Shown in pieces: positions 12,476-61,285 of a stretch of DNA of 64,000 bases (position 1 is its first letter; every line of letters starts with the position of its first letter). Position numbers and translations under genes: made by a program. Source of the DNA: an uncultured Deminuibacter sp. (lineage in GTDB: Bacteria; Bacteroidota; Bacteroidia; Chitinophagales; Chitinophagaceae); NCBI GenBank assembly GCA_966424055.1, contig CBJLMB010000013.1:38562-102561 (forward strand). The letters run 5' to 3'. The notes below the pieces were generated by a model, which saw only the letters and a list, made by a program, of their open reading frames with translations, was not told where the DNA came from and made no database searches.

Positions 12476-12485
12476 TCGGCCTTAG

Positions 12486-12700
12486 TCCTCAGTAGGCAGT
12501 TCTCAGTCCTCAGTCGGCGGGGGGAGGAGTAGATCGCAGTAGCAGATGGCGGAAAGTACCGATTGCAGCAGGACAGTGAACCATTACCAGCCGGCGGGTA
12601 CAATACCAGCGTTAGAATCAGCGCAATGCACAATCCATTGCTTCCCACAAATTGCCCACTGCCTACTGCAGACTGAGAACCGCCTACTGCCAACTGAACA
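12486..12700. repeat. Long inverted repeat (arms of about 20 bp; left arm 12490-12508 CAGTAGGCAGTTCTCAGTC, right arm 12668-12689 GCAGACTGAGAACCGCCTACTG) enclosing a ~160-bp loop, between convergent genes
   Basis: Read directly from the sequence. TCCTCAGT is duplicated on the left and GCCTACTG on the right. The right arm ends in CTGCCAACTGAAC, the same motif as the repeats at 28235-28286. Confidence 0.55.
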
Positions 12701-12705
12701 CCGCT

Positions 12706-25793: not shown

Positions 25794-28142
25794 ATGAAGA
25801 AGATTTACCTGCTGCTGGCAATATTAGGGTGTACTACAGGCTTATGGGCGCAGCAAACAATTCGCGGTACTATTAAAGATGAAAACGGGCAGCCATTGAG
25901 GCATTGTTCAGTTAGCCTGAAAGGCCAGCATGAATTTGTGTCTACCGGTGCTAACGGGCAGTATACGCTTAGCACAGATAGAACAGGTAAACAGGAGCTG
26001 GTCATTTCTCTCGCAGGATATAAAACAAACAAACAGGTCATCGACCTGCAACCCGGAAAGGAAATAATGCTGAACGGTCAGCTGGAACCTGACCTGCGCC
26101 AGCTGGATGAAGTGATCGTTTCCGCCAGCCGCCGTCCTGAAGCATTGAGTAATGTGCCTTCCTCTGTTACGGTTGTCAACCGTAAAACCATTGAAAGCGA
26201 TATGGCGGTTGCAACGGATATTACAGAAATACTGGCCAAGGAAGTGCCAGGACTGGCACCTTCAGCACAAACCAGCAGCAATGTAGGTCAGTCATTGCGC
26301 GGCCGTTCGGTACTGGTGATGATCGATGGTATACCACAGTCAACGCCATTGCGCAATGGCGAAGTGGATCTTCGTTCTATCGATCCTTCGGTAATAGAAC
26401 GGGTGGATGTACTGAAAGGCGCTACTGCTATTTATGGCAACGGCGCCACCGGTGGTCTCATCAATTATATAACATTGACACCAAAGGATGCCGGTGTATT
26501 GTCTGGCAAAACTTCGGTGAACATGACAGGCTCGCTGTCTAATTTAAAAAACAGTACCGGTGGGCGGCTCAATCAATTGCTGTATGGCCGCTATAAAAAA
26601 CTGGATTATGTGCTGAGCGGTGTTTATGAACAAACCGGTGAGTTCAAAGATGCAAAAGGACAGTTGCTGGGGCCCAATTACAGCCTCGGCGAAACAGAAA
26701 GCTACAATGCATTTGCAAAAATCGGTTTTGAGCCCACACGCAACCAGCGTATCCAGCTGATGTATAATTTTTACGGCAGCCAGCAAAACTCAAAATATGT
26801 ACTGGTGAATGGCGATTATGCCACGGGCAAGCCTGCCACTGGTGTGCCGGGCAAACAAACCGGCGATCCTACCGGTGTAAAAGGCAATCACAACCTGCAA
26901 TTGTCTTATCATGCCGATAGCCTGATAGGCGCTACTTCACTGGACGCTGATGCCTACTTCCAATCCAGGAATGATGTGTTTTATGTTTCCATCGGCCGTT
27001 TTGAAGGTGGCGACGGGCAGTCGCATACGCTTTCTAAAAAGAAGGGGCTGCGCCTGATGCTGAACACTCCACTGCTAACAGCAAAAACAGCACAGGGTAC
27101 CGTTTCCTATGGTGCCGATCTGCTGAATGATATAACATCTCAGCCACTGGTAGATGGCCGCACCTGGGTACCCGAAATGAACATGCTCAATTTCGCCCCT
27201 TTTGCCGAAACGGAATGGCGGCTGTTGCGCGATCTTATTGTAAAAGGCGGTGTTCGTATAGAAAAAGTACGCATCAGTGTAAACGACTATACAACTCTGC
27301 GCATCACCAATGCGAACGGGCAAACCATTACGCCCAGCTTTAATGTAAAAGGCGGCGACCTGAAATACACAGCCACTTTATTCAATGCAGGTATCCGTTA
27401 TAACCGTTATGCATTGTTCGCGCCTTATGCCAGTTTTTCACAGGGATTTTCTGTGTCGGATGTAGGACTGGCACTGCGCGATGCCAAAGTGGATAATATT
27501 AATAAGATCAATACAGAGGCTGTACTGGTGAACAATTATGAGCTGGGTTTTGTAAGCCGGTATAAAAAACTTCGTTTCGAGCTTACGGGTTTTATCAGCA
27601 CCTCCAAACTGGGCTCCGAAATGCTGTTCGACAATACTACCGGCCTGTTCAATGTAAGCCGTACACCTGAGCGTATATACGGTTTTGAAGCCAGCCTGCA
27701 GTACCAGCTGCTGCCCACACTGGATATCTCTGCTTCCTATAGCTATGTGGAGGGAAAAGCCGACACCGGCAGAAATGGTCATTACAATACTTATTTGAAT
27801 GGAAGACGTATTGCCCCACCCAAGCTAACAGGCAGTGTTCATTACCAGCCTTTGCCGGCGATGGACCTCCGACTGCAATACACAGGCATCTGTGCAAGGG
27901 ATCGCTTTGTTAAAAATACTTCCGGCACATACAATGGCAATGAAGGACCAGTAAGTGCTTATAACCTGTTTAACCTGAATGCCAGCTACCGGTTCAATAA
28001 AAATACGCAGCTCACCCTGGGTATTGAAAACCTGTTCAACGCAGATTATTTTCCTGCCCGCTCCCAGTGGTATATGATCCCGGGTTTTTATTCCAAAGGA
28101 AAAGGTGCCTCGTTCAATGTGGGTATATCGGTGAGCTATTAA
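25794..28142 (+). CDS. TonB-dependent receptor (non-SusC type) with N-terminal carboxypeptidase-regulatory-like domain
   Basis: It has a signal peptide, a plug domain (…VIVSASRRPEALSNVPSSVTVV…IERVDVLKGATAIYGNGATGGLINYIT) and a 22-strand barrel ending in an aromatic residue (…SFNVGISVSY). No SusD gene follows it. Confidence 0.85.
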   Translation: MKKIYLLLAILGCTTGLWAQQTIRGTIKDENGQPLRHCSVSLKGQHEFVSTGANGQYTLSTDRTGKQELVISLAGYKTNKQVIDLQPGKEIMLNGQLEPDLRQLDEVIVSASRRPEALSNVPSSVTVVNRKTIESDMAVATDITEILAKEVPGLAPSAQTSSNVGQSLRGRSVLVMIDGIPQSTPLRNGEVDLRSIDPSVIERVDVLKGATAIYGNGATGGLINYITLTPKDAGVLSGKTSVNMTGSLSNLKNSTGGRLNQLLYGRYKKLDYVLSGVYEQTGEFKDAKGQLLGPNYSLGETESYNAFAKIGFEPTRNQRIQLMYNFYGSQQNSKYVLVNGDYATGKPATGVPGKQTGDPTGVKGNHNLQLSYHADSLIGATSLDADAYFQSRNDVFYVSIGRFEGGDGQSHTLSKKKGLRLMLNTPLLTAKTAQGTVSYGADLLNDITSQPLVDGRTWVPEMNMLNFAPFAETEWRLLRDLIVKGGVRIEKVRISVNDYTTLRITNANGQTITPSFNVKGGDLKYTATLFNAGIRYNRYALFAPYASFSQGFSVSDVGLALRDAKVDNINKINTEAVLVNNYELGFVSRYKKLRFELTGFISTSKLGSEMLFDNTTGLFNVSRTPERIYGFEASLQYQLLPTLDISASYSYVEGKADTGRNGHYNTYLNGRRIAPPKLTGSVHYQPLPAMDLRLQYTGICARDRFVKNTSGTYNGNEGPVSAYNLFNLNASYRFNKNTQLTLGIENLFNADYFPARSQWYMIPGFYSKGKGASFNVGISVSY

Positions 28143-28149
28143 CAGCGGC

Positions 28150-28300
28150 GGGAAATTTGTCTCGCGGAATGCGCGGAAGACGCGGAAGGAAGGGATGAAT
28201 TATTCTTTGAACGTTCCATTTATGATTGCCTGCAGCTGCCAACTGGACTGTGGACTGCCGACTGCCAACTGTGGACTGCCAACTGGACAAAACACTGGAA
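28150..28300. repeat. Intergenic repeat element: GCGGAA-type motif block (GCGGAATGCGCGGAAGACGCGGAAGGAAGG) plus tandem GACTGCCAACTG mini-repeats at 28235-28286
   Basis: Direct reading of the sequence. The same motif families recur at 12655-12700 and 53400-53430 in this window. Confidence 0.55.
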
Positions 28301-28314
28301 TCAATAAAATTACA

Positions 28315-29361
28315 TCACCCCTCGCCCCGGGGATCATCCTGCTGCGCTGTGGCTTGGTAATGCCGCCATCCCCAATACAAGCGGTTGCGTATGTTTTTAC
28401 GCAATACTTCAGGAGCCAGCACTTCAACGCCTTCGCCAAAGCCCAGTATTTCCTTTTCCAGCTCAAAGTTCAGCTGCAGTTTCATTTGTATGATGATGCC
28501 GTTTTCTCTTCGCTCAATCGTTTCCTGGCTGTGGTGAAAGGGCTTGGTTTCTACATAAGGCGCATGCAGCTGGTTTACGAATAGTTGTATTGTTCTGGGG
28601 CGCTGGTTCTGGCTCACCGTAACACCGATCACATCCTTATAAAAATCATGGGGGTGTATACCGCCGTTGCCGGTATACGCGATATTGTCTGCCTGCTCCA
28701 GCGCCTGTATCCTGTCCAGCGCCAGGTTCAGCACATACTGACCGGCCTGTTTCACACCCACAGCGAACCACCTGTTTTTAAATTCTTTCAGCCACCATAC
28801 ATGAAACACGAACTGCTGTGCTTCCCTGGCTTTGAACGAGCGGTAACTGAGCAGTACTGCTTTCTGCTGTATAACGGAATGGTACAACAGGTCGAGGTGT
28901 TCAAGTCCTTTCAGCCGTTCGTTCTTTTCAAAATCAATAACAGGGGTGGTTTGATGGGCAGATGCATATACATGGTCTTCCAGTTTTTGCACTACCTCGT
29001 TCAGGCTGGTAAAATGTGAGAAACCTTTGAATTGTTTCAGCACTTCCACCGCTTCGTTCATGCGGCCCAGATCCTGTTCACTCAGCGGAATATTGGTGAT
29101 GCTGTAGGAGGGATCTTCATAAGTATAATATTTCCGGTTCAGCACCACGATAGGGGCATTATAGCCCAGCTTATCGCTGCGCATCACCTGTATATCGGCC
29201 TGTATGGTGCGTTTGCTAATGCCCTTATCCATGCCTTCATATTCGTACAATGCATCAGATACCGCATCGATCAGCTTTTCCAGTGTCCATTTCCGCTGGC
29301 GGTTGCGCAGGCAGGCATCAATGGCTTTATAGCGGATCAGGGCATTGCGGTTAACAGGCAT
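28315..29361 (-). CDS. WYL domain-containing transcriptional regulator (HTH + WYL), divergent from rtcB
   Basis: The N-terminus MPVNRNALIRYKAIDACLRNRQRKWTLEKL… is the typical start of HTH-WYL regulators. A downstream WYL-like domain is present (…VFHVWWLKEFKNRWFAVGV…). The start is set to the internal ATG at 29361 rather than the ORF-track start at 29469. Confidence 0.75.
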   Translation of the reverse strand: MPVNRNALIRYKAIDACLRNRQRKWTLEKLIDAVSDALYEYEGMDKGISKRTIQADIQVMRSDKLGYNAPIVVLNRKYYTYEDPSYSITNIPLSEQDLGRMNEAVEVLKQFKGFSHFTSLNEVVQKLEDHVYASAHQTTPVIDFEKNERLKGLEHLDLLYHSVIQQKAVLLSYRSFKAREAQQFVFHVWWLKEFKNRWFAVGVKQAGQYVLNLALDRIQALEQADNIAYTGNGGIHPHDFYKDVIGVTVSQNQRPRTIQLFVNQLHAPYVETKPFHHSQETIERRENGIIIQMKLQLNFELEKEILGFGEGVEVLAPEVLRKNIRNRLYWGWRHYQATAQQDDPRGEG

Positions 29362-29397
29362 ACACAAAAAATTTCCGGGAAAATAGAAAATAAATTT

Positions 29398-29422
29398 TAC
29401 TGCGCAAAAAGACTGCGCAGTA
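29398..29422. promoter_or_regulatory. Inverted repeat TACTGCGCA-N7-TGCGCAGTA in the WYL-regulator/rtcB divergent promoter region; candidate operator
   Basis: A perfect 9-bp dyad read from the sequence. It lies between two divergent starts that are about 80 bp apart. Confidence 0.4.
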
Positions 29423-29438
29423 GACTTGCAGCTTTGTA

Positions 29439-30875
29439 TTGTCAAATAAAACAAGCAATATGGAACCATTGAACATCACCGGAAAAGAATTGATCAGCAT
29501 CGGTTATCCGCAATCACCCGCTATAGCCCTGGCCATGCAGCTGGTGGCACATGCCTTCAGTGCAGGGCAGCGGCAAGAAGCATTGGAGGTATTGAAAGCT
29601 GTACTGGAACAGCCGGAGGCTTTTACCGGTGATGCTGTTTTTGCCGAACTGGCCGCAGCGTTGATAGCAGAGAAAGAATCATCTACCATACAGTTACAGC
29701 AACCAGCACCTTATACAGTGTTCGGTAGCGATTTTATTGAACAGGGCGCCCGCGCACAAATGGATGCGGCCGTTAAACTGCCGGTGGCCGTAGCGGGTGC
29801 CCTGATGCCTGATGCTCACCAGGGTTATGGTTTACCTATCGGTGGGGTACTGGCTACCCGTAATGCTGTTATTCCTTATGGTGTGGGTGTGGATATCGGC
29901 TGCCGTATGTGTTTGAGCATTTATGATATACCCGGTGAACATTTAATCAGCCATAAAGCGCAGTACCAGCGTGAACTGGTGGCACATACCCTGTTTGGTG
30001 CAGGTGCGGGTTTTCATGGGCGGTACAAAGCTGATCATGCTGTGCTGGAAGACAAAACTTTTTCGCTTACTCCTTTTATCAAACAGCTGCACGATAAAGC
30101 CTATACCCAGCTGGGTACTTCAGGCGGCGGCAACCATTTTGTAGAATGGGGTGAGCTGGAAATACTGTCAGCACAAAATGCACTGGCTATTCCCAAAGGT
30201 AAATACCTGGCTCTTTTATCTCATTCCGGTTCGCGGGGCTTTGGTGCTACTATTGCAGGGTACTATACCAGGCTGGCAAAGGAATTGTGCCGTTTACCAA
30301 AAGAAGCCGCCAACCTGGCCTACCTGTCGCTGGATACTGCCGAAGGGCAGGAGTACTGGCTGGCAATGAACCTGGCCGGTAATTATGCCAGCGCCTGTCA
30401 TGAAGTAATTCATAATAAGCTTACCAAAGCCATCGGCGCACAGTTACTGGCAAGGGTGGAAAACCACCACAATTTTGCCTGGAAGGAAACCTGGAATAAC
30501 GAGGAGATGATTGTACACCGTAAAGGTGCAACACCTGCGGCCGAAGGTGTGCTGGGTATTATTCCCGGCTCTATGACAGCACCAGGCTTCCTGGTGCGTG
30601 GTAAGGGTAATACTGCTTCATTGCAATCTGCATCGCATGGTGCGGGCCGGCAGATGAGTAGGACTGCCGCCGAAAAGGCTTTCACATCCGAATGGCTGCG
30701 GGCTACACTGCGCGAGCATGATGTAACCCTGATAGGCGGCGGACTGGATGAGGCACCCGGTGCATACAAGGATATCCGTACAGTAATGGCAGCACAGCAA
30801 GACCTGGTAGAAGTACTGGCCTGCTTTACACCACGTATTGTGCGGATGGCCGACGACGGCAGCCGGGAAGATTAA
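29439..30875 (+). CDS. rtcB: RtcB family RNA-splicing/repair ligase (3'-phosphate/5'-hydroxyl nucleic acid ligase), long form
   Basis: Conserved metal and GMP-binding motifs are present: …ALMPDAHQGYGLPIGGV…, …GGGNHFVEW…, …HNHNFAWKE…, …ASHGAGRQMSR…. There is about 100 aa of N-terminal sequence ahead of the core, as in archaeal/eukaryotic-type RtcB. Confidence 0.9.
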   Translation: MSNKTSNMEPLNITGKELISIGYPQSPAIALAMQLVAHAFSAGQRQEALEVLKAVLEQPEAFTGDAVFAELAAALIAEKESSTIQLQQPAPYTVFGSDFIEQGARAQMDAAVKLPVAVAGALMPDAHQGYGLPIGGVLATRNAVIPYGVGVDIGCRMCLSIYDIPGEHLISHKAQYQRELVAHTLFGAGAGFHGRYKADHAVLEDKTFSLTPFIKQLHDKAYTQLGTSGGGNHFVEWGELEILSAQNALAIPKGKYLALLSHSGSRGFGATIAGYYTRLAKELCRLPKEAANLAYLSLDTAEGQEYWLAMNLAGNYASACHEVIHNKLTKAIGAQLLARVENHHNFAWKETWNNEEMIVHRKGATPAAEGVLGIIPGSMTAPGFLVRGKGNTASLQSASHGAGRQMSRTAAEKAFTSEWLRATLREHDVTLIGGGLDEAPGAYKDIRTVMAAQQDLVEVLACFTPRIVRMADDGSRED

Positions 30876-31029
30876 CAACGATTTTGTTGATACAACATAA
30901 AAAGCTTCCACGAGGAAGGTTGAACAGGGTATTGCCAGGCCCGGATGAGGGTTTCTTACAGCCCCGTAGTATTGCCCGCAATAGCTGGTGATATGCTGCC
31001 TGCCTTGCTGTGTTCATCAAACCATCAAT

Positions 31030-31122
31030 GGGCGGGGGTTCGAATCCCCCTGCCGGCAACAGCTGGTATAGCTCAGCGGCAGAGCAATTGAACCAATGCA
31101 GGTTCGAATCCTGCTCCAGCAG
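31030..31122 (+). ncRNA. Two tandem tRNA-like fragments with no anticodon arm; candidate tRNA-mimic / Y-RNA-like (YrlA-type) ncRNA downstream of rtcB
   Basis: Fragment 1 (31031-31054) is GGCGGGGGTTCGAATCCCCCTGCC, a T-arm-like hairpin with the canonical GGTTCGAATCC loop. Fragment 2 (31060-31122) is GCTGG-TA-TAGCTCAGCGGCAGAGCA (D-arm), a 13-nt linker, AGGTTCGAATCCT (T-arm) and GCTCCAGCA (closing acceptor-like stem of about 5 bp). The linker is too short for an anticodon arm, so neither is a functional tRNA. The whole 30876-31426 region is non-coding. Confidence 0.4.
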
Positions 31123-50265: not shown

Positions 50266-52101
50266 ATGCATTATTCTTCTCTGGAGCAATGTTTACTGGA
50301 TCTCGAAAAGCATGGTCACCTGGTAAGGGTGAAAGAAGAGGTTGACCCATACCTGGAAATGGCAGCTGTTCACCTGCGTGTGCATGAAGCTGGCGGACCA
50401 GCCCTGCTGTTTGAAAATGTAAAAGGCAGCCGTTACAGGGCTGCATCGAATATATTCGGCACGCTGGACAGAAGCCGTTTTATTTTCCGCGATACTTTCA
50501 AAAAGATACAACAGCTCATCGAGTTAAAAGATGACCCGGTAAAAGCACTTAAATCACCTTTCCGGAATTTTGCCACAGCGTTAGCCGCGCTCAAGGCGCT
50601 GCCGCTGCGCAATCCCGTACAAAAACCGGTGCTTGACACCACCATCCGCATCAGTGACCTGCCATTGATACAACACTGGCCTATGGACGGCGGTGCTTTT
50701 GTTACACTGCCGCAGGTGTACTCAGAAGATATCAACCAGCCCGGTGTGATGCATGCCAACCTGGGTATGTACCGCATACAGCTTACCGGCAATGAGTATG
50801 TGCCCGATAAAGAAGTGGGTTTGCATTATCAGTTGCACCGCGGTATTGGCGTGCACCAGTCTGCCGCCAATGCAAAAGGGCAGCCTTTGAAAGTGAGTGT
50901 ATTTGTCGGTGGTCCGCCCTCGCATAGCCTGGCAGCCGTAATGCCACTGCCCGAAGGTATGAGTGAGCTGAGTTTTGCCGGGGCATTGGGTGGAAGGCGT
51001 TTCCGTTATGTGTATAAAGATGGCTACTGTATCAGCACCGATGCCGATTTCGTGATCACCGGCGAGGTATATCCCGGCGAAAACAAACCCGAAGGCCCCT
51101 TTGGTGATCATCTCGGTTATTACAGCCTGGCGCATCCCTTCCCGGTGATGCGGGTGCATGCCGTATATGCACGAAAAAACGCGATCTGGCCTTTTACTGT
51201 TGTAGGCCGGCCCCCGCAGGAAGACACCAGTTTCGGCGAGTTGATCCATGCGCTCACGGGTAATGCGATACCCCAGGAAATACCCGGGTTGAAAGCCGTG
51301 CATGCCGTGGATGCCGCCGGTGTACACCCGCTGCTGCTGGCATTGGGAAGCGAACGCTATACACCTTATCAGCCGGTGCAGCAGCCCGCAGAGATACTCA
51401 CTATTGCCAATCATGTTCTCGGAACCGGGCAACTGAGCCTGGCAAAGTTCTTATTTATCACGGCAGATCCGCAAAACCGTTTGTCGGTACAGGACGTACA
51501 GCCTTTCATGGAATATGTATTGCAGCGGATCGACCTCAGCCGGGATGTTCATTTTTATACCAACACCACCATCGATACGCTGGATTATTCAGGCACAGGC
51601 CTCAATTCGGGCAGTAAGGTGGTGTTCGCCGCTTATGGCGCGGTACGCCGGCAATTATGTACCGAAGTACCCGCCGCATTGCAGTCATTACATGGTTTTG
51701 AAAAGCCTGCATTGGCTATGCCTGGTGTTGTATGCCTGCAAACAACCGCTTTTACGCATTATGCTGCTGCGCAGAAGGAGATGGCTACCCTCTGTGATCA
51801 GCTGGCAGAGCTGTCCGGACTGGATACGGTTCCGTTTATAGTGATCACAGACAACAGCAGCTTTACCGCTGCTGATCTCCGCAACTATGTATGGGTAACG
51901 TTCACACGCTGTAATCCTTCACATGATATTTATGGGGTAGGTGCTTTTACGCAGTTTAAGCATTGGGGATGCAGGGGACCGCTGCTGATTGATGCCAGGG
52001 CGAAACCGCATCATGCCCCGGCCCTGGACAAAGACCCGGCAGTGGAAAAAAGAATCAACCGGTTGTTCGCAAAAGGCGGTAGTTTGGAAGAAGTGGGTTG
52101 A
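50266..52101 (+). CDS. UbiD family decarboxylase (menaquinone-biosynthesis decarboxylase-like)
   Basis: The N-terminus …LLDLEKHGHLVRVKEEVDPYLEMAAVHLRVHEAGGPALLFENVKGSRY… matches UbiD/PAD1-partner decarboxylases. Length about 610 aa. Confidence 0.8.
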   Translation: MHYSSLEQCLLDLEKHGHLVRVKEEVDPYLEMAAVHLRVHEAGGPALLFENVKGSRYRAASNIFGTLDRSRFIFRDTFKKIQQLIELKDDPVKALKSPFRNFATALAALKALPLRNPVQKPVLDTTIRISDLPLIQHWPMDGGAFVTLPQVYSEDINQPGVMHANLGMYRIQLTGNEYVPDKEVGLHYQLHRGIGVHQSAANAKGQPLKVSVFVGGPPSHSLAAVMPLPEGMSELSFAGALGGRRFRYVYKDGYCISTDADFVITGEVYPGENKPEGPFGDHLGYYSLAHPFPVMRVHAVYARKNAIWPFTVVGRPPQEDTSFGELIHALTGNAIPQEIPGLKAVHAVDAAGVHPLLLALGSERYTPYQPVQQPAEILTIANHVLGTGQLSLAKFLFITADPQNRLSVQDVQPFMEYVLQRIDLSRDVHFYTNTTIDTLDYSGTGLNSGSKVVFAAYGAVRRQLCTEVPAALQSLHGFEKPALAMPGVVCLQTTAFTHYAAAQKEMATLCDQLAELSGLDTVPFIVITDNSSFTAADLRNYVWVTFTRCNPSHDIYGVGAFTQFKHWGCRGPLLIDARAKPHHAPALDKDPAVEKRINRLFAKGGSLEEVG

Positions 52102-52728
52102 TGTACGGTGTACGATATGGGATGTATGATGTATGGGGGAGTGTTTGTTTGAAGCCTGCTGCGCTTTTTCGCAGGTTTTTGGGGGAGGTACTTTTAGATA
52201 GCTAAATGCTTATAGCCTGGGCTGTTAAAAATGTAGGGGCAGTTGGAAACAACCGCCCCTTTTTCAACCCTAAACCCTTAAAAAACATCTTAATGTTACA
52301 AAAAACCATGCCAATATCCGGTTTGGTAAAACGATTTTTTCAAAAACAAACGGGTTTATTTCAAAGCAGAAAGCAACGGCAGGATTTTATGTATATTATC
52401 AAAAGGTAAAGTGGTAAGCGGCTTGTTTTGATAAAAACTGGTAAACCGGCAATATTCTGCTGCTTACCGCAAAAACAAATTTCTGCGGTCAATTCTATAA
52501 GTGCTGAAGGGCAGGACTGAGTAGCTGCTTACACAGGTATTGCGTAGTTTTTCAACACTCCTCCACAACAAGGTTATCCTTTTCTGAAGCTCTCCAAATG
52601 AATATCACTGTTCTGCGAAGAAATAAGGCATAGGGCCTGCATTCGGGCGACTAAAATAAAAAGTTTATATGAAACATTCAATTTATTGATTATCAATATT
52701 TAATTTATATTAAATAAAAATCCCGTTC

Positions 52729-52760
52729 AAACTGAACGGGATTTTTTACATGTCGTTTAT
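52729..52760. terminator. Bidirectional rho-independent terminator (AAAAATCCCGTTCAAACTGAACGGGATTTTTT) downstream of ndk
   Basis: Perfect 10-bp stem, 5-nt loop, and A/T runs on both sides. It begins 13 bp past the ndk stop. Confidence 0.7.
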
Positions 52761-52772
52761 TTGCCTGGCTGG

Positions 52773-53189
52773 CTAGAAGCGTTCCAGTGCAGAGAAAAAG
52801 AAATTGCCTTCGATCGCTGCATTTTCATCGCTGTCGCTGCCATGTACTGCATTTTCACCAACAGAAGAAGCGAATTTTTTACGGATGGTTCCTTCTTCAG
52901 CCTGTGCAGGATTGGTAGCGCCGATCAGTTTCCTGAAATCTGCAACTGCATTGTCCTTTTCCAGGATAGCTGCCACAATATTACCGCTGCTCATGAATTC
53001 AACCAGCTCTCCATAAAAAGGCCTTTCTTTATGTACAGCATAGAATTCACCTGCCTGCGCAGTGGTCAGGCGGGTCCATTTCATGGCTTTAATGGTGAAG
53101 CCTGCTTTGATGATCTGATCCAGGATAGCGCCTGTGTGACCTTTGGAAGTCGCATCAGGTTTGATCATTGTAAATGTTCTGTTACCCAT
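52773..53189 (-). CDS. ndk: Nucleoside-diphosphate kinase
   Basis: [31 protein letters not shown]…NAVHGSDS… with an NDK active-site His context. 138 aa. Confidence 0.9.
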
Positions 53190-53328
53190 ATACCTTATTA
53201 GCTTGTTTGAATTAGCGCGGCAAAATTAGCGATTGATGCAGGAATTCCGCCATCCGGGCAAAAAAAAATCATCATCACCCGGTATGGCCGCTTTGAACAG
53301 CAATAACCGGGCAGGATGGGACATCCCA

Positions 53329-53706
53329 ACTCATAGCTAGCAGCTCATGGCTTGCAGCTATTAAAGGCTTCGAGCTACTAGCGTTGAGCTGCGAGAAATG
53401 CATCTCGCGGAACACGCGGAAAACGCAGAAAGGAAGATGCTTTTCAGGATGGCCCGGCAAAATAATTTATTCTATTTAAGGGCCATTTTGTCCTGATAAC
53501 AGCCCGTTCTACCTCATAGCTGGCAGCTCATGGCTTGCAGCTACTAAATGCTTCGAGCGACTAGCGTTGAGCTGCAAGGAATTCATCTTGCGGAACACGC
53601 AAAAAACGCAGAAGGGAAGATGATTTTCGGGATGGCCCGGCAAAACAATTTATTCCATTTAACGGGCTATTCCAACTCATAGCTGGCAGCTCATGGCTTG
53701 CAGCTA
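53329..53706. repeat. Tandem array (about 2.2 copies) of a ~165-183-bp unit; each unit starts with (A/C)CTCATAGCT(A/G)GCAGCTCATGGCTTGCAGCTA
   Basis: Unit starts are at 53329, 53512 and 53675 (the last is partial). Units share GCTTCGAGC(T/G)ACTAGCGTTGAGCTGC, GCGGAACACGC(G/A)(G/A)AAAACGCAGAA(A/G)GGAAGATG and GGATGGCCCGGCAAAA(T/C)AATTTATTC, at about 88% identity between units. The array lies between ndk and the nrnA-like gene. Confidence 0.7.
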
Positions 53707-53777
53707 TAAAAAAACGACTGACCACCCCATTGCTTTGCCTCTATATGAACGCGGTATAAATAAATATATTTGAATGA

Positions 53778-54818
53778 ATGCGGCGAAACCCGGAATTTTG
53801 CCGCCATTCTATGCAATACATCGATCAGTTTTATCCACTGTTGGCAACCCCCGCCAAAGCAGTCGTAACAATGCACCAGAAACCAGATGGTGATGCTATG
53901 GGCTCTGCTTTGGGGCTCTACCATTTCCTTGCAGCATTGGGGCACCAGGTTACTGTAATATCGCCCACCAACTGGGCCGATTTTCTCAATTGGATGCCTG
54001 GCTGCGGCCAGGTACTGAATTTTGATTCAGAGAAGGAAAAAGCTATTGCCTTAACCAATGAAGCAGACTGGATTTTCTGCCTTGATTTTAATGTATTGCA
54101 CCGTACCAGGCATTTTGAACCGGTGCTGGCCGCTGCTCCCGGTATTAAAATTTTAATTGATCATCATCAACAACCTCAGGTTGAGGCATTTGCATATGGT
54201 GTGAGCGATGTTTCCAAAAGCTCCACCTGTGAAATGATATACGATTTTATCGTTGGTGCCGGTTATGCCAGTAAGCTGAACCTTGACATGGCCGCCTGTT
54301 TGTACACAGGCTTGATGACCGATACCGGCAGCTTCCGCTTTCCTTCCACCACCGCAGCTGTACACCGTATTATCGCACACCTAAAAGATCTGGGGCTGCA
54401 GCATACGCCCATCCACGAAAATATCTATGATAATTTCCTGGAGAACCGCCTGCGCTTTATCGGTCATGCTTTATTGAACAGATTGGATGTATTATACGAA
54501 TACAATACGGCCATCATGTCTATTCCCAAAACAGATCTGTTGCGTTTCGATATCAAGACAGGCGATTCCGAAGGACTTGTCAACTACCTGCTCACCATTG
54601 AAGGCATAAGGTTTGGTGCATTGGTGATCGACCGGGATGAAGAACGGAAATGGAGTTTCCGCAGTAAAGGCGATTTTGATGTAAACACATTTGCCAGGAA
54701 TCATTTTGAAGGAGGCGGCCATAAAAATGCAGCGGGCGGCCGTAGCAGCGAAACACTTGAACAAACAACAAAAAAATTCAAACAGGTTTTACAACAATAT
54801 GAAGCTCAACTACAATAA
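53778..54818 (+). CDS. DHH family phosphoesterase (NrnA-like bifunctional oligoribonuclease/pAp phosphatase)
   Basis: DHH motifs (…HQKPDGDAMGSAL…, …ILIDHHQQPQ…) and a DHHA1 C-terminal region with GGGH (…NHFEGGGHKNAAGG…). The true start may be the ATG at 53811. Confidence 0.8.
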   Translation: MRRNPEFCRHSMQYIDQFYPLLATPAKAVVTMHQKPDGDAMGSALGLYHFLAALGHQVTVISPTNWADFLNWMPGCGQVLNFDSEKEKAIALTNEADWIFCLDFNVLHRTRHFEPVLAAAPGIKILIDHHQQPQVEAFAYGVSDVSKSSTCEMIYDFIVGAGYASKLNLDMAACLYTGLMTDTGSFRFPSTTAAVHRIIAHLKDLGLQHTPIHENIYDNFLENRLRFIGHALLNRLDVLYEYNTAIMSIPKTDLLRFDIKTGDSEGLVNYLLTIEGIRFGALVIDRDEERKWSFRSKGDFDVNTFARNHFEGGGHKNAAGGRSSETLEQTTKKFKQVLQQYEAQLQ

Positions 54819-55773: not shown

Positions 55774-55801
55774 CAATAGTAAAGAATCAATTCATACAAA
55801 C

Positions 55802-55833
55802 AGCCGGTTTCAGCAATGAACCGGCTTTTTTAT
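55802..55833 (+). terminator. Rho-independent terminator after the FKBP gene (AGCCGGTTTCAGCAATGAACCGGCTTTTTTATT)
   Basis: 8-bp stem, loop, then T6. Confidence 0.65.
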
Positions 55834-55841
55834 TCGCTAGT

Positions 55842-56130
55842 GGCAAGTTGCGCTAGCGCGCCGTGAATCGCGAGTTTGCCGGTGGCGCAGGGGGATGCAG
55901 TACAACCCACTGGCCATTCACGGTTGCGGTAGCAACCACTCGCCACTCGCGAATACTGTACTGGGAAATGAAGCAAGCTTATTAAACAGGTGTACATGTA
56001 AACAACCTTACGGGAGCATTCGCGAGTAGCAAGTTGCGCTAGCGCGCCGTGAATCGCGAGTTTGCCGGTGATGTAAAGGGAATGCAGTACTATCCACTAG
56101 CGATTCACGGTTGCAGTAGCAACCACTCGC
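55842..56130. repeat. Two copies of a ~112-bp hairpin-forming repeat (55842-55953 and 56019-56130) separated by a 65-bp spacer; MITE-like. Copy 2 overlaps the 3' end of folP
   Basis: The copies are about 90% identical (TTCGC(T/G)AGT(G/A)GCAAGTTGCGCTAGCGCGCCGTGAATCGCGAGTTTGCCGGTG…CACGGTTGC(G/A)GTAGCAACCACTCGCCACTCGCG). Within each copy the 5' half is the imperfect reverse complement of the 3' half (CCGTGAATCG…CGATTCACGG; CGCGAGTGG…CCACTCGCG). Confidence 0.6.
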
Positions 56131-56965
56131 CACTCGCGGGTCCCTCATACGCAGCTACCAGCTTGATCGCTTCTATAGCCTCTTTAACATCATGTACCCG
56201 GAGTATGGAGGCGCCTTTCAACAGGGCCAGTGTATGTAATACAGTGGTGCCATTCAATGCGCCGGCGCTGTTAACCCCCAAGGTTTTCTGTACTATGGAT
56301 TTGCGGGATACACCTATCAGTATTGGCAAACCGAGTATACTGAATGCCTCCATTTCCCTGAGCAGCTGAAAATTCTGTTCTCCTGTTTTGGCAAAACAAA
56401 AACCGGGATCGATGATCACATCGGCAATACCGGCGGAATGGCAGGCGGCTGTTTGGCGGATAAAAAAGTCCAGCACTTCCTGTGTAACATGTGTGTATTG
56501 CGTTTGCTGCTGCATATTCTCCGGTGTACCACGCATATGCATGCAGATATAGGGTACCTGCAAGGAAGCTACAGTGTCAAGCATGGCTGCATCAAGGCTG
56601 CCACCGCTTACATCATTCACCATACAGGCGCCGGCGGCAACAGCCCCGGCGGCAACAGATGCAAAATAAGTGTCAACAGAAATATAGGCTTCCGGGAAGC
56701 GTTGGTGAATGGCTTCGATCACCGGCAATACACGCGATGCCTCGGTGGCTGCATCCACCTGCTGCTGGCCGGGGCGCGTGCTCTGGCCACCCAGGTCAAG
56801 AAGGGTGGCACCCTCTTGCAGCATCCGCTCTGCCTGTTTCAGGGCATCATCCACGGCGGGTTGGCGGCTGCCGCTGTAGAACGAATCCGGTGTTGTATTG
56901 ATGATACCCATCACCACCGGCTGACGGAGTGTGAGTAATCTTCCTTTGCAATTCAGCGTGAACAT
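56105..56965 (-). CDS. folP: Dihydropteroate synthase
   Basis: …VMGIINTTPDSFYSGS…, …GATLLDLGGQSTRPG…, …ISVDTY…, …MVNDVSGG…, …CMHMRG… are classic DHPS motifs. The start is placed at MFTLNCKG (56965). The C-terminal ~8 codons are encoded by the repeat element. Confidence 0.85.
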   Translation of the reverse strand: MFTLNCKGRLLTLRQPVVMGIINTTPDSFYSGSRQPAVDDALKQAERMLQEGATLLDLGGQSTRPGQQQVDAATEASRVLPVIEAIHQRFPEAYISVDTYFASVAAGAVAAGACMVNDVSGGSLDAAMLDTVASLQVPYICMHMRGTPENMQQQTQYTHVTQEVLDFFIRQTAACHSAGIADVIIDPGFCFAKTGEQNFQLLREMEAFSILGLPILIGVSRKSIVQKTLGVNSAGALNGTTVLHTLALLKGASILRVHDVKEAIEAIKLVAAYEGPASGEWLLLQP

Positions 56966-58817: not shown

Positions 58818-58946
58818 GAGGAAGGGGAGTAGTGGTTAGTAATTGGTGATTGATGATTGATGATTGGTTAGGAGGGTGGGGGCAGGCTGTTGACGAACTT
58901 TGACATTCATTTTTATACAATAAATACTTACCGGTAAAGCAATCGC

Positions 58947-60987: not shown

Positions 60988-61019
60988 GGGGTAAAGGTAG
61001 GAAATAGTGTTGATGTATG

Positions 61020-61285
61020 ATGTGGTGTATGAAGGCTGTTTCCATGTACGATGTACGATGTGGGATGCACGATGTGGGCACGAAAGTATGCCGGGACGGT
61101 TTCGTACTTATAACTTCGTAATTCGTACTTTTATAAGAGCGTTATGCAGTCGCCCGCGTCCCGCGGGTGACCATTATCACTGCAGCCTCCGGCTGCCACC
61201 CCCTAACTACTACTACCCTCAATTCCCATTCCCCAATCAACCACTCAACTACTCAACCACTCAACTAATCACTATCTTGCACCGG
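61020..61285. repeat. Degenerate short-period repeat tracts: G/T-rich (GATGTAYGATGTGGG-like, 61020-61085) and the complementary-flavour C/A-rich CAACCACTCAACTACTCAACCACTCAACTAATCACT (61238-61275)
   Basis: Read from the sequence. Similar G/T-rich tracts follow stop codons at 52095-52140 and 58820-58875. Confidence 0.5.

Follow-up and report, generated by a model that had tools for sequence, protein, structure and literature searches.

The window, by which we mean the whole stretch of 64,000 nucleotides analysed, contains the neighbouring genes ndk (PF00334) and nrnA (DHH/DHHA1), the same pair that a preliminary description of this DNA had named on either side of a repeat array. The two genes are divergent neighbours in every relative compared. 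The NrnA protein shares 85% identity with its counterpart in Deminuibacter soli and 80% with the one in Filimonas effusa, which places the organism, a soil-type bacterium, in the Chitinophagaceae. The spacer between them measures 621 nt in the window, versus 98-174 nt in six relatives: 174 nt in L102, whose NrnA is 91% identical, 170 nt in D. soli (L104), 130 nt in F. effusa (L114), 115 nt in L115, and about 98-131 nt in L117 and L118. Alignments with these relatives placed about 450 extra nucleotides between ~53300 and ~53750, and this DNA is missing in six out of six.

A motif scan of positions 53150-53850 found just two boxes of the Bacteroidetes TAnnTTTG type, both outside the array: the -7 box of the ndk promoter on the minus strand (53221-53228, TAATTTTG) and the -7 box of the nrnA promoter on the plus strand (53765-53772, TATATTTG), the latter followed by a leader at 53779-53810. 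The nrnA box and leader are conserved in the six Chitinophagaceae relatives. The short spacers of the relatives thus identify the array as a lineage-specific insertion of ~450 nt between both promoters, and the position of the -7 boxes outside it, together with the conservation of the nrnA box and leader, indicates that the insertion was recent and went into an untranscribed promoter gap. Contigs L001 and L002, which come from the same organism in two other samples and are 99.9-100% identical to the window, stop immediately short of the array, at 53305 and 53283; this fits a repeat-induced assembly break and proves nothing more.

Two neighbouring features of the locus were also recorded. Within 53765-53813 (..TTTGAatGAATGcggcgAAaCCCgGAATTTTGCCGCCattcTATG) the nrnA leader contains a hairpin just before the start codon, conserved in the six Chitinophagaceae relatives, and the conserved leader may be a translational or transcriptional control element. 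On the other side of ndk, the gap between ubiD and ndk (52102-52772) is 671 nt long with no convincing ORF, Pfam or Rfam match, is also long in Deminuibacter soli (519 nt), and ends in a bidirectional terminator hairpin at ~52716-52747.

Tandem structure of the array

TRF detected the array at 53330-53671 with a period of 183, 1.9 copies, 89% matches and a score of 565, together with sub-repeats of period 14 at 53330, 53513 and 53676 (2.1 copies in the head of the unit) and of period 9 at 53406 (2.9 copies in a block of nonamers). When the whole 64-kb window was searched by blastn, unit 1 was matched by unit 2 at 53513-53671 (89.3% identity over 159 nt, E 2e-47) and by a third head at 53676-53711 (94% over 36 nt). 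The tandem array of a ~180-bp repeat in the preliminary description was therefore confirmed by TRF and blastn, and could be refined to two units of 183 nt and 163 nt, ~90% identical, plus a 31-nt head. Its order is a partial unit end, then head-body-head-body-head, all in direct orientation on one strand. That three units share a head, as had been described, is borne out by the head 20-mer CAGCTCATGGCTTGCAGCTA, which occurs exactly three times in the window versus 0.01 expected; the 16-mer GGATGGCCCGGCAAAA, at 53630-53645 in unit 2, occurs exactly twice.

Unit 1 (53330-53512, plus strand, 183 nt), like unit 2 delimited by TRF, blastn and motif matches, opens with the head (53330-53360, plus strand), a heptamer-periodic and partly palindromic run of CTCATAG, CTAGCAG, CTCATGG and CTTGCAG closed by CTA. 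An inverted partner arm follows at ~53371-53398 (plus strand; unit positions 41-71), which by blastn is imperfectly, 67%, complementary to the head. Next, a stem formed by GCATCT (53400-53405) and AGATGC (53435-53440) encloses the nonamer block (53406-53430), in which three nonamers, CGCGGAAca, CGCGGAAaa and CGCAGAA, sit in a short CATCT/AGATG stem. Module C, a stem-loop at 53446-53494 (plus strand), consists of a GGATGGCCCGG...(C)GGGC stem (also given as GGATGGCCCGG...GGGCC) with an AT-rich loop, and is followed by an 18-nt unit-specific tail. Unit 2 (53513-53675, plus strand, 163 nt) is built of the same modules, with its nonamer block at 53589-53613 decayed to TGCGGAAcaCGCAAAAaaCGCAGAA. The third head (53676-53706, plus strand, 31 nt) is identical to head 2 and runs into a unique tail that reaches ~53750. 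At the other end, the repeat extends ~7 nt to the left of 53330 (tCCCAA versus tTCCAA), and more weakly for ~30 nt further, where the flank resembles a unit end. This left junction (53300-53329, plus strand) is a degenerate fragment like the 3' end of the unit, AACCGGGCAGGATGGGACATCCCAA compared with AACGGGCTATTCCAA at the end of unit 2, and it is here that, in the alignments, the DNA missing in the relatives begins.

Over 158 aligned positions the two units show 16 substitutions (12 transitions, 4 transversions), and an indel of ~20 nt sets their ends apart. Unit 2 has lost two nonamer cores out of three, and this decay speaks against purifying selection. The 6-7-bp stem that encloses the nonamers reads GCATCT/AGATGC in unit 1 and TCATCTT/AAGATGA in unit 2, and contains the single compensatory change between the units, from G-C to U-A in the stem closing the nonamers. 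Three stretches, namely a 21-nt head core and two 16-mers, are kept perfectly, which could reflect either constraint or gene conversion; the difference in conservation between head and body was not significant (p = 0.2).

Parts of the unit recur elsewhere in the window. The nonamer pattern YGCGGAANNCGCRRAANACGCRGAA matched at 53406, 53589 and 28163, versus 0 expected, and CGCGGAAnn in three copies at a 9-nt period is exact at 53406-53430 and 28163-28187 and decayed at 53589-53613. The match at 28163, in agreement with the GCGGAA block previously noticed near 28157-28190, belongs to another copy of the body (28133-28235, plus strand), in which the nonamer block (28163-28187) is followed by GGAAGGGATG and the AT-rich AATTATTCT. 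The order of its parts is that of the array: an upstream stretch, the nonamer block, GGAAG(G)GATG and AATT(T)ATTCT. This is the sole other body copy in the 64 kb, recovered by nhmmer at E 1.3e-6 with a model built without it; blastn with one unit, the copy count that had been proposed earlier, returned unit 2 and the third head, but outside the array the tally of body copies in the 64 kb stayed at this one. A different, ACTG-type heptamer array (28236-28288) directly follows it. The 28133-28235 copy lies between convergent genes, versus a promoter gap for the array, and with the body copies in such different contexts there is no common functional setting.

The head was said to reappear in a hairpin at 34228-34300. 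The heptamers CTTGCAG, CTAGCAG and CTCATAG are indeed there, at 34222-34311 (plus strand), where arms of AGCT-type head heptamers surround a terminator-like inner hairpin (DNA fold z = -4.25), but they come in permuted order and at 75-83% identity, and this is not the head motif itself. In ~90 kb of syntenic DNA of relatives nhmmer found no body copies, and the head 20-mer had a single, unrelated match in JGI metagenomes. Modules therefore recur, and the whole unit is known only at the ndk/nrnA array, with copy counts that cover 64 kb of the genome. Of the dispersed family with local amplification that had been proposed, the tandem amplification stands, but dispersal holds for modules only.

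Origin of the array

The array showed no sign of being coding, a reading that we rejected: its ORFs of 44-61 aa start with TTG and have no third-position bias, differences between the units fall 5/4/4 on the codon positions of the longest ORF, with an indel in addition, and no word-sharing protein for the unit-spanning ORF was found among 5.8 billion predicted-protein clusters. Plasmid and phage collections contained no match to the array. No GC-skew switch was found, and a replication origin or terminus was rejected on that ground. The preliminary description had already excluded a CRISPR, rightly, since what lies between one head and the next is ~88% identical from unit to unit; there are also no cas genes in the window.

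On balance, and with confidence only somewhat better than even, we take the array to be a non-coding, lineage-specific mosaic minisatellite, either neutral or selfish and akin to REP/BIME/BOX elements. In such a course of events a single composite unit with kinship to the 28133 copy would have arrived at or arisen in the permissive gap, and unequal recombination or replication slippage between identical heads of 31-36 nt would have duplicated it. Both copies would then have drifted to ~10% divergence, with decay of the nonamers in unit 2. We assume that no function in the cell depends on its sequence; what it does is probably passive, the promoters being set ~450 nt further apart and the DNA upstream of the nrnA -7 box being replaced, and the three direct heads should still permit changes in copy number. 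Points against this reading are the compensatory change in the nonamer stem, the three stretches kept perfectly by both units and the occurrence of the CGCGGAA core in many phyla. Taken alone, the array is one more case of bacterial intergenic repeat DNA, of use chiefly as a strain marker, as a locus whose repeat number probably varies and as an explanation for broken assemblies.

Known repeat systems resemble the array in part. The BIMEs (clusters of REPs) of Escherichia coli and other enterobacteria are intergenic, non-coding mosaics of palindromic modules and linkers in variable tandem clusters; the REPs in them switch orientation from one to the next, bear a GTAG-type tetranucleotide and are associated with RAYT transposases. 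The array of the window is likewise an intergenic, non-coding mosaic with tandem modules; however, its units are direct and made of heptamer and nonamer simple repeats, and the window has no RAYT. The REP-type element suggested earlier finds no support in this comparison: a 5' GT[AG]G tetranucleotide is absent from the heptamer-periodic heads, and orientation does not alternate, all three heads and the two bodies lying on one strand. The BOX elements of Streptococcus pneumoniae, built as boxA-boxB(n)-boxC with a variably amplified internal module, are present in more than 100 copies per genome. They share with the array a modular intergenic design and internal tandem amplification, but there is no sequence relation, and the 64 kb examined here contain a single array with one partial paralogue.

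According to the summary in PMC4679880, the long simple sequence repeats of Mrazek et al. (2007) are tandem units of 5-11 nt, chiefly heptamers, that cluster in the non-coding DNA of particular lineages, some Bacteroidetes among them. The head (period 7/14), the nonamers (period 9) and the intergenic enrichment in the window fit these repeats and the heptamers of the cyanobacterial STRR type. Short tandem units with enrichment in non-coding DNA describe the modules only, and not the 180-nt unit; the window differs in that short runs, of 2-3 copies each, together form a ~180-nt composite, and this composite is in turn repeated. The 'BrickBuilt' element of Porphyromonas gingivalis, a minisatellite inside an intergenic MITE (PMC4596501), is similar to the array as a Bacteroidetes intergenic repeat frame with an internal tandem array. 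BrickBuilt has MITE ends and many copies, whereas the array has no terminal inverted repeats and one partial paralogue in 64 kb.

Alternative readings of the array

The alternative that survives best looks beyond this lineage. It sees in the array a degenerate member, lacking the gene, of a repeat system that crosses phyla, in which tandem units of 120-200 nt with inverted CGCGGAA-type arms surround GxxExxY (PF13366, PD-(D/E)XK) mini-genes, and it supposes that the nuclease, encoded elsewhere in the genome, recognises the nonamers and drives spread or amplification; we regard this as unlikely, although it is the foremost of the competing explanations. In its favour, the CGCGGAAnn x3 pattern was found at no fewer than 98 loci (at least 98, in a scan of species-representative genomes, L003-L100) from many bacterial and some archaeal phyla, but the cross-phylum excess over chance is uncalibrated against shuffled nonamers. 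Verrucomicrobiota, Acidobacteriota, Gemmatimonadota, Poribacteria, Methanosarcina and haloarchaea are among the matches listed, as are Filimonas and Flaviaesturariibacter of the Chitinophagales; a viral scan with the same pattern gave 9 loci. Matches in actinomycetes and others are probably coding or chance repeats, and it speaks against the proposed kinship that slippage can create tandem nonamers independently. A strictly defined inverted partner lies within 300 nt in at least 34 of the 111 listed arrays; more are recognised by eye, and at least a third is the share that counts in favour of the system. Several of the hairpins have kept the 7-nt core CGCGGAA with 2-nt spacers that are not complementary, a pattern that suggests recognition of a motif rather than selection for a stem, and that the core is common to many phyla hints at protein recognition.

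The link to the mini-genes comes from 5 of the at least 98 loci (L032, L035, L048, L058 and L094), where a PF13366 gene stands next to or between the arms; PDDEXK_3 is the sole recurrent Pfam family of small ORFs beside the arrays among the loci listed. In L032 the arrays flanking the GxxExxY gene have periods of 182 (3.4 copies) and 166 (2.5 copies), which resemble the 183 and 163 nt found here, and 28 of the first 30 nt of its nonamer region are identical to unit 1, followed by GATG..CTTTTC. In L134 (the P0211 locus), exact 157-nt units alternate with one 614-nt unit, whose 457-nt ORF insert is placed exactly at the unit junction GTCGAGTGAA|GAAACCGCAAA, and L137 has the order gene-unit-gene. 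Samples differ at the P0173 locus in how many 120-nt units follow the gene (1, 1.9, and from at least 2.7 to 4.6), and one MAG contains dispersed, internally deleted remnants of the GxxExxY gene with the same flanks at several loci. Close homologues run into the thousands, most of them on contigs shorter than 3 kb. We found no literature description of nonamer-arm units around GxxExxY/PF13366 genes, and literature on nonamer strings, REPs in Chitinophagaceae and GxxExxY/PF13366 yielded nothing relevant.

The alternation of units would suggest a homing-like or nuclease-driven intragenomic parasite, spread over Verrucomicrobiota, Acidobacteriota, other phyla and possibly archaea. Conceivably, though we doubt it, nonamer arrays mark an undescribed, horizontally spreading system of alternating 'empty' and GxxExxY-occupied units, and the ndk-nrnA array would represent a decayed branch of it in Bacteroidota, devoid of the gene. 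The wider point is a core with a 9-nt period whose range takes in Bacteroidota, Verrucomicrobiota and Methanosarcina, and which turns up time and again with GxxExxY mini-genes located exactly at the unit junctions of tandem arrays; were the link true, PF13366, a very abundant nuclease family of unknown function, would for the first time be placed in a genomic context and gain a role open to testing.

The units of the window share with this system the CGCGGAAnn x3 core, a length in the range of 120-200 nt and direct tandem amplification. However, the nonamer/GxxExxY units have both arms, and some an ORF, whereas the window units are one-armed, with no TTCCGCG-type inverted partner in or near them and no ORF or remnant of one: tblastn of 120 GxxExxY proteins against the window gave nothing better than E = 0.07, and Pfam gave none. 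Outside the nonamers, nhmmer with unit and body profiles found similarity to the window unit that is weak and 10-40 nt long at all loci compared (in L069, CGAGAAAATCATCTGCGGAA), and no GxxExxY gene is present at any Chitinophagales locus among the matches listed. An array with neither inverted arm nor ORF makes the connection a lead and not membership.

Two sets of loci deserve mention in their own right. GxxExxY (PF13366) mini-genes were seen in tandem nonamer-hairpin units at L134:218-1773, L137, L119-L127, L032:5033-6708, L027, L036 and L048. In a Filimonas sp. MAG (L007:5230-5560), two tandem units of ~130 nt carry a nonamer hairpin, CGCGGAAAGCGCAGAAAACGCGGAA...TTCTGTGTTTTCTGCG, and these hairpins are nested in heptamer arms of the ATTTGAG type; this locus, from another genus of Chitinophagaceae, is like the window array in its nonamer and heptamer modules and its tandem duplication.

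It is more doubtful still that the array is a protein-binding or regulatory platform, whose nonamers or heads would bind a regulator or nucleoid protein and tune or insulate the ndk and nrnA promoters. The array does lie between two promoters, and the CGCGGAA core, present three times at a 9-nt period, recurs at 28163 with other spacers. Such a role, however, is hard to square with the absence of the array from all relatives despite the conserved promoter and leader, with the decayed nonamers of unit 2, and with the location of the other body copy between convergent gene ends.

We consider very improbable the tandem small RNA of the preliminary description, whether as two copies of a small RNA gene or as a cis-acting RNA in a long nrnA leader. 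In its favour is the fold of the whole array, with z = -6.2 on the plus strand and -3.5 on the minus strand relative to shuffles, to which can be added the G-U pairs on the plus strand in module C of unit 2. The strong whole-array score, however, arises largely because identical quasi-palindromic heads pair mutually, as is expected of DNA palindromes, and the fold therefore carries no implication of a strand-specific RNA. Secondary structure predicted unit by unit consists of the head hairpin, the nonamer stem and module C, and the stability of single modules is marginal: the head hairpin of units 1 and 2 has z = -2.4 and -1.4 as RNA and, as DNA, is not more stable than shuffles (z = -1.2 and -0.9). 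The word 'structured' in the earlier account thus has weak support. Rfam scans at gathering and E-value thresholds returned chance-level matches only (for example mir-879 and GHRLOS), the tRNA/tmRNA scan none, and the motif scan of 53150-53850 no TAnnTTTG box inside the array; the units are without a -7 box or terminator, the nrnA promoter is downstream of the array, and the array is not kept in the six relatives. The small RNA option is accordingly without support.

About equally remote is the idea of a classical MITE or REP element that owes its mobility to a transposase or RAYT and was either inserted twice or duplicated. The head and the internal arm do form inverted repeats, at 67%, and the contigs from the other samples break ~25-47 nt before the left end of the array. 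But these inverted repeats are internal, and there are no terminal ones at the ends of the inserted block; a target-site duplication is not definable, as the flanks are too diverged from the relatives for base-level junctions. The ends thus do not establish the MITE also suggested in the preliminary description. Furthermore, the units are all direct, Pfam found no transposase, RAYT, cas or GxxExxY gene among the window ORFs, and the head 20-mer is essentially absent from JGI metagenomes.

Finally, a spurious duplication introduced by assembly is extremely unlikely: the source is a MAG contig and other assemblies of the same organism end before the array, but 16 sites and a 20-nt indel separate the units, and the usual fault of assemblers is to merge repeats, not to create diverged copies.

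Short-period repeats elsewhere in the window

Among the 33 short-period loci detected by TRF in the window, mostly of period 7 or 14, 17 are in intergenic DNA, which makes up 12.3% of the window (p = 6e-8). Short-period arrays have a density of 3.9 per 10 kb in the window versus 1-6.6 in relatives, a similarity indicating that the heptamer habit is family-wide and not genome-specific; the lineage-specific trait is the recent gain of composite blocks. Two further intergenic gains relative to L102 are present at 55774-56170 and 58818-58946; several intergenic regions of this Chitinophagaceae lineage have recently acquired composite modules of simple repeats.

At 55832-56140, between FKBP and folP-like genes, there are two copies of a 122-nt long imperfect palindrome with a period of 186, 89-90% identical and with the ends ATTCGC(T/G)AGTGGC...GCCACTCGCGAAT. 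Their DNA folds have z = -4.5 and -3.5, both are missing in L102, and the FKBP/folP-like spacer measures ~397 nt in the window versus 127 nt in L102. A heptamer array at 58836-58870 is missing in L102 as well. Intergenic heptamer or octamer arrays were seen at 12480-12704, 28236-28288, 52099-52135, 58836-58870, 61010-61080 and 61233-61271; their motifs are CCTCAGT/ACTGCCT arms flanking ~130 nt, TGGACTG, GATGTAN, TGATTGA and CCACTCAA, some as inverted pairs.

Just downstream of RtcB (29439-30875), and near a WYL/WCX regulator gene (28315-29469), lies a tRNA-like element (31026-31121) that scores 37 bits with the Rfam tRNA model, has its anticodon arm almost deleted and is not called by ARAGORN. 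It overlaps a sub-threshold match of 28 bits to YrlA (Y RNA-like), and is probably a Y-RNA-like or tRNA-like RNA of the RtcB repair operon. At 33607-33725, between divergent genes for a xylose-isomerase-like TIM barrel and a CBS-domain protein, a near-perfect 33-nt palindrome, AGCTATTCCATATCTCCAGGATATGGAATAGCT, is present in two copies 78 nt apart, a pair that looks like putative operator sites.
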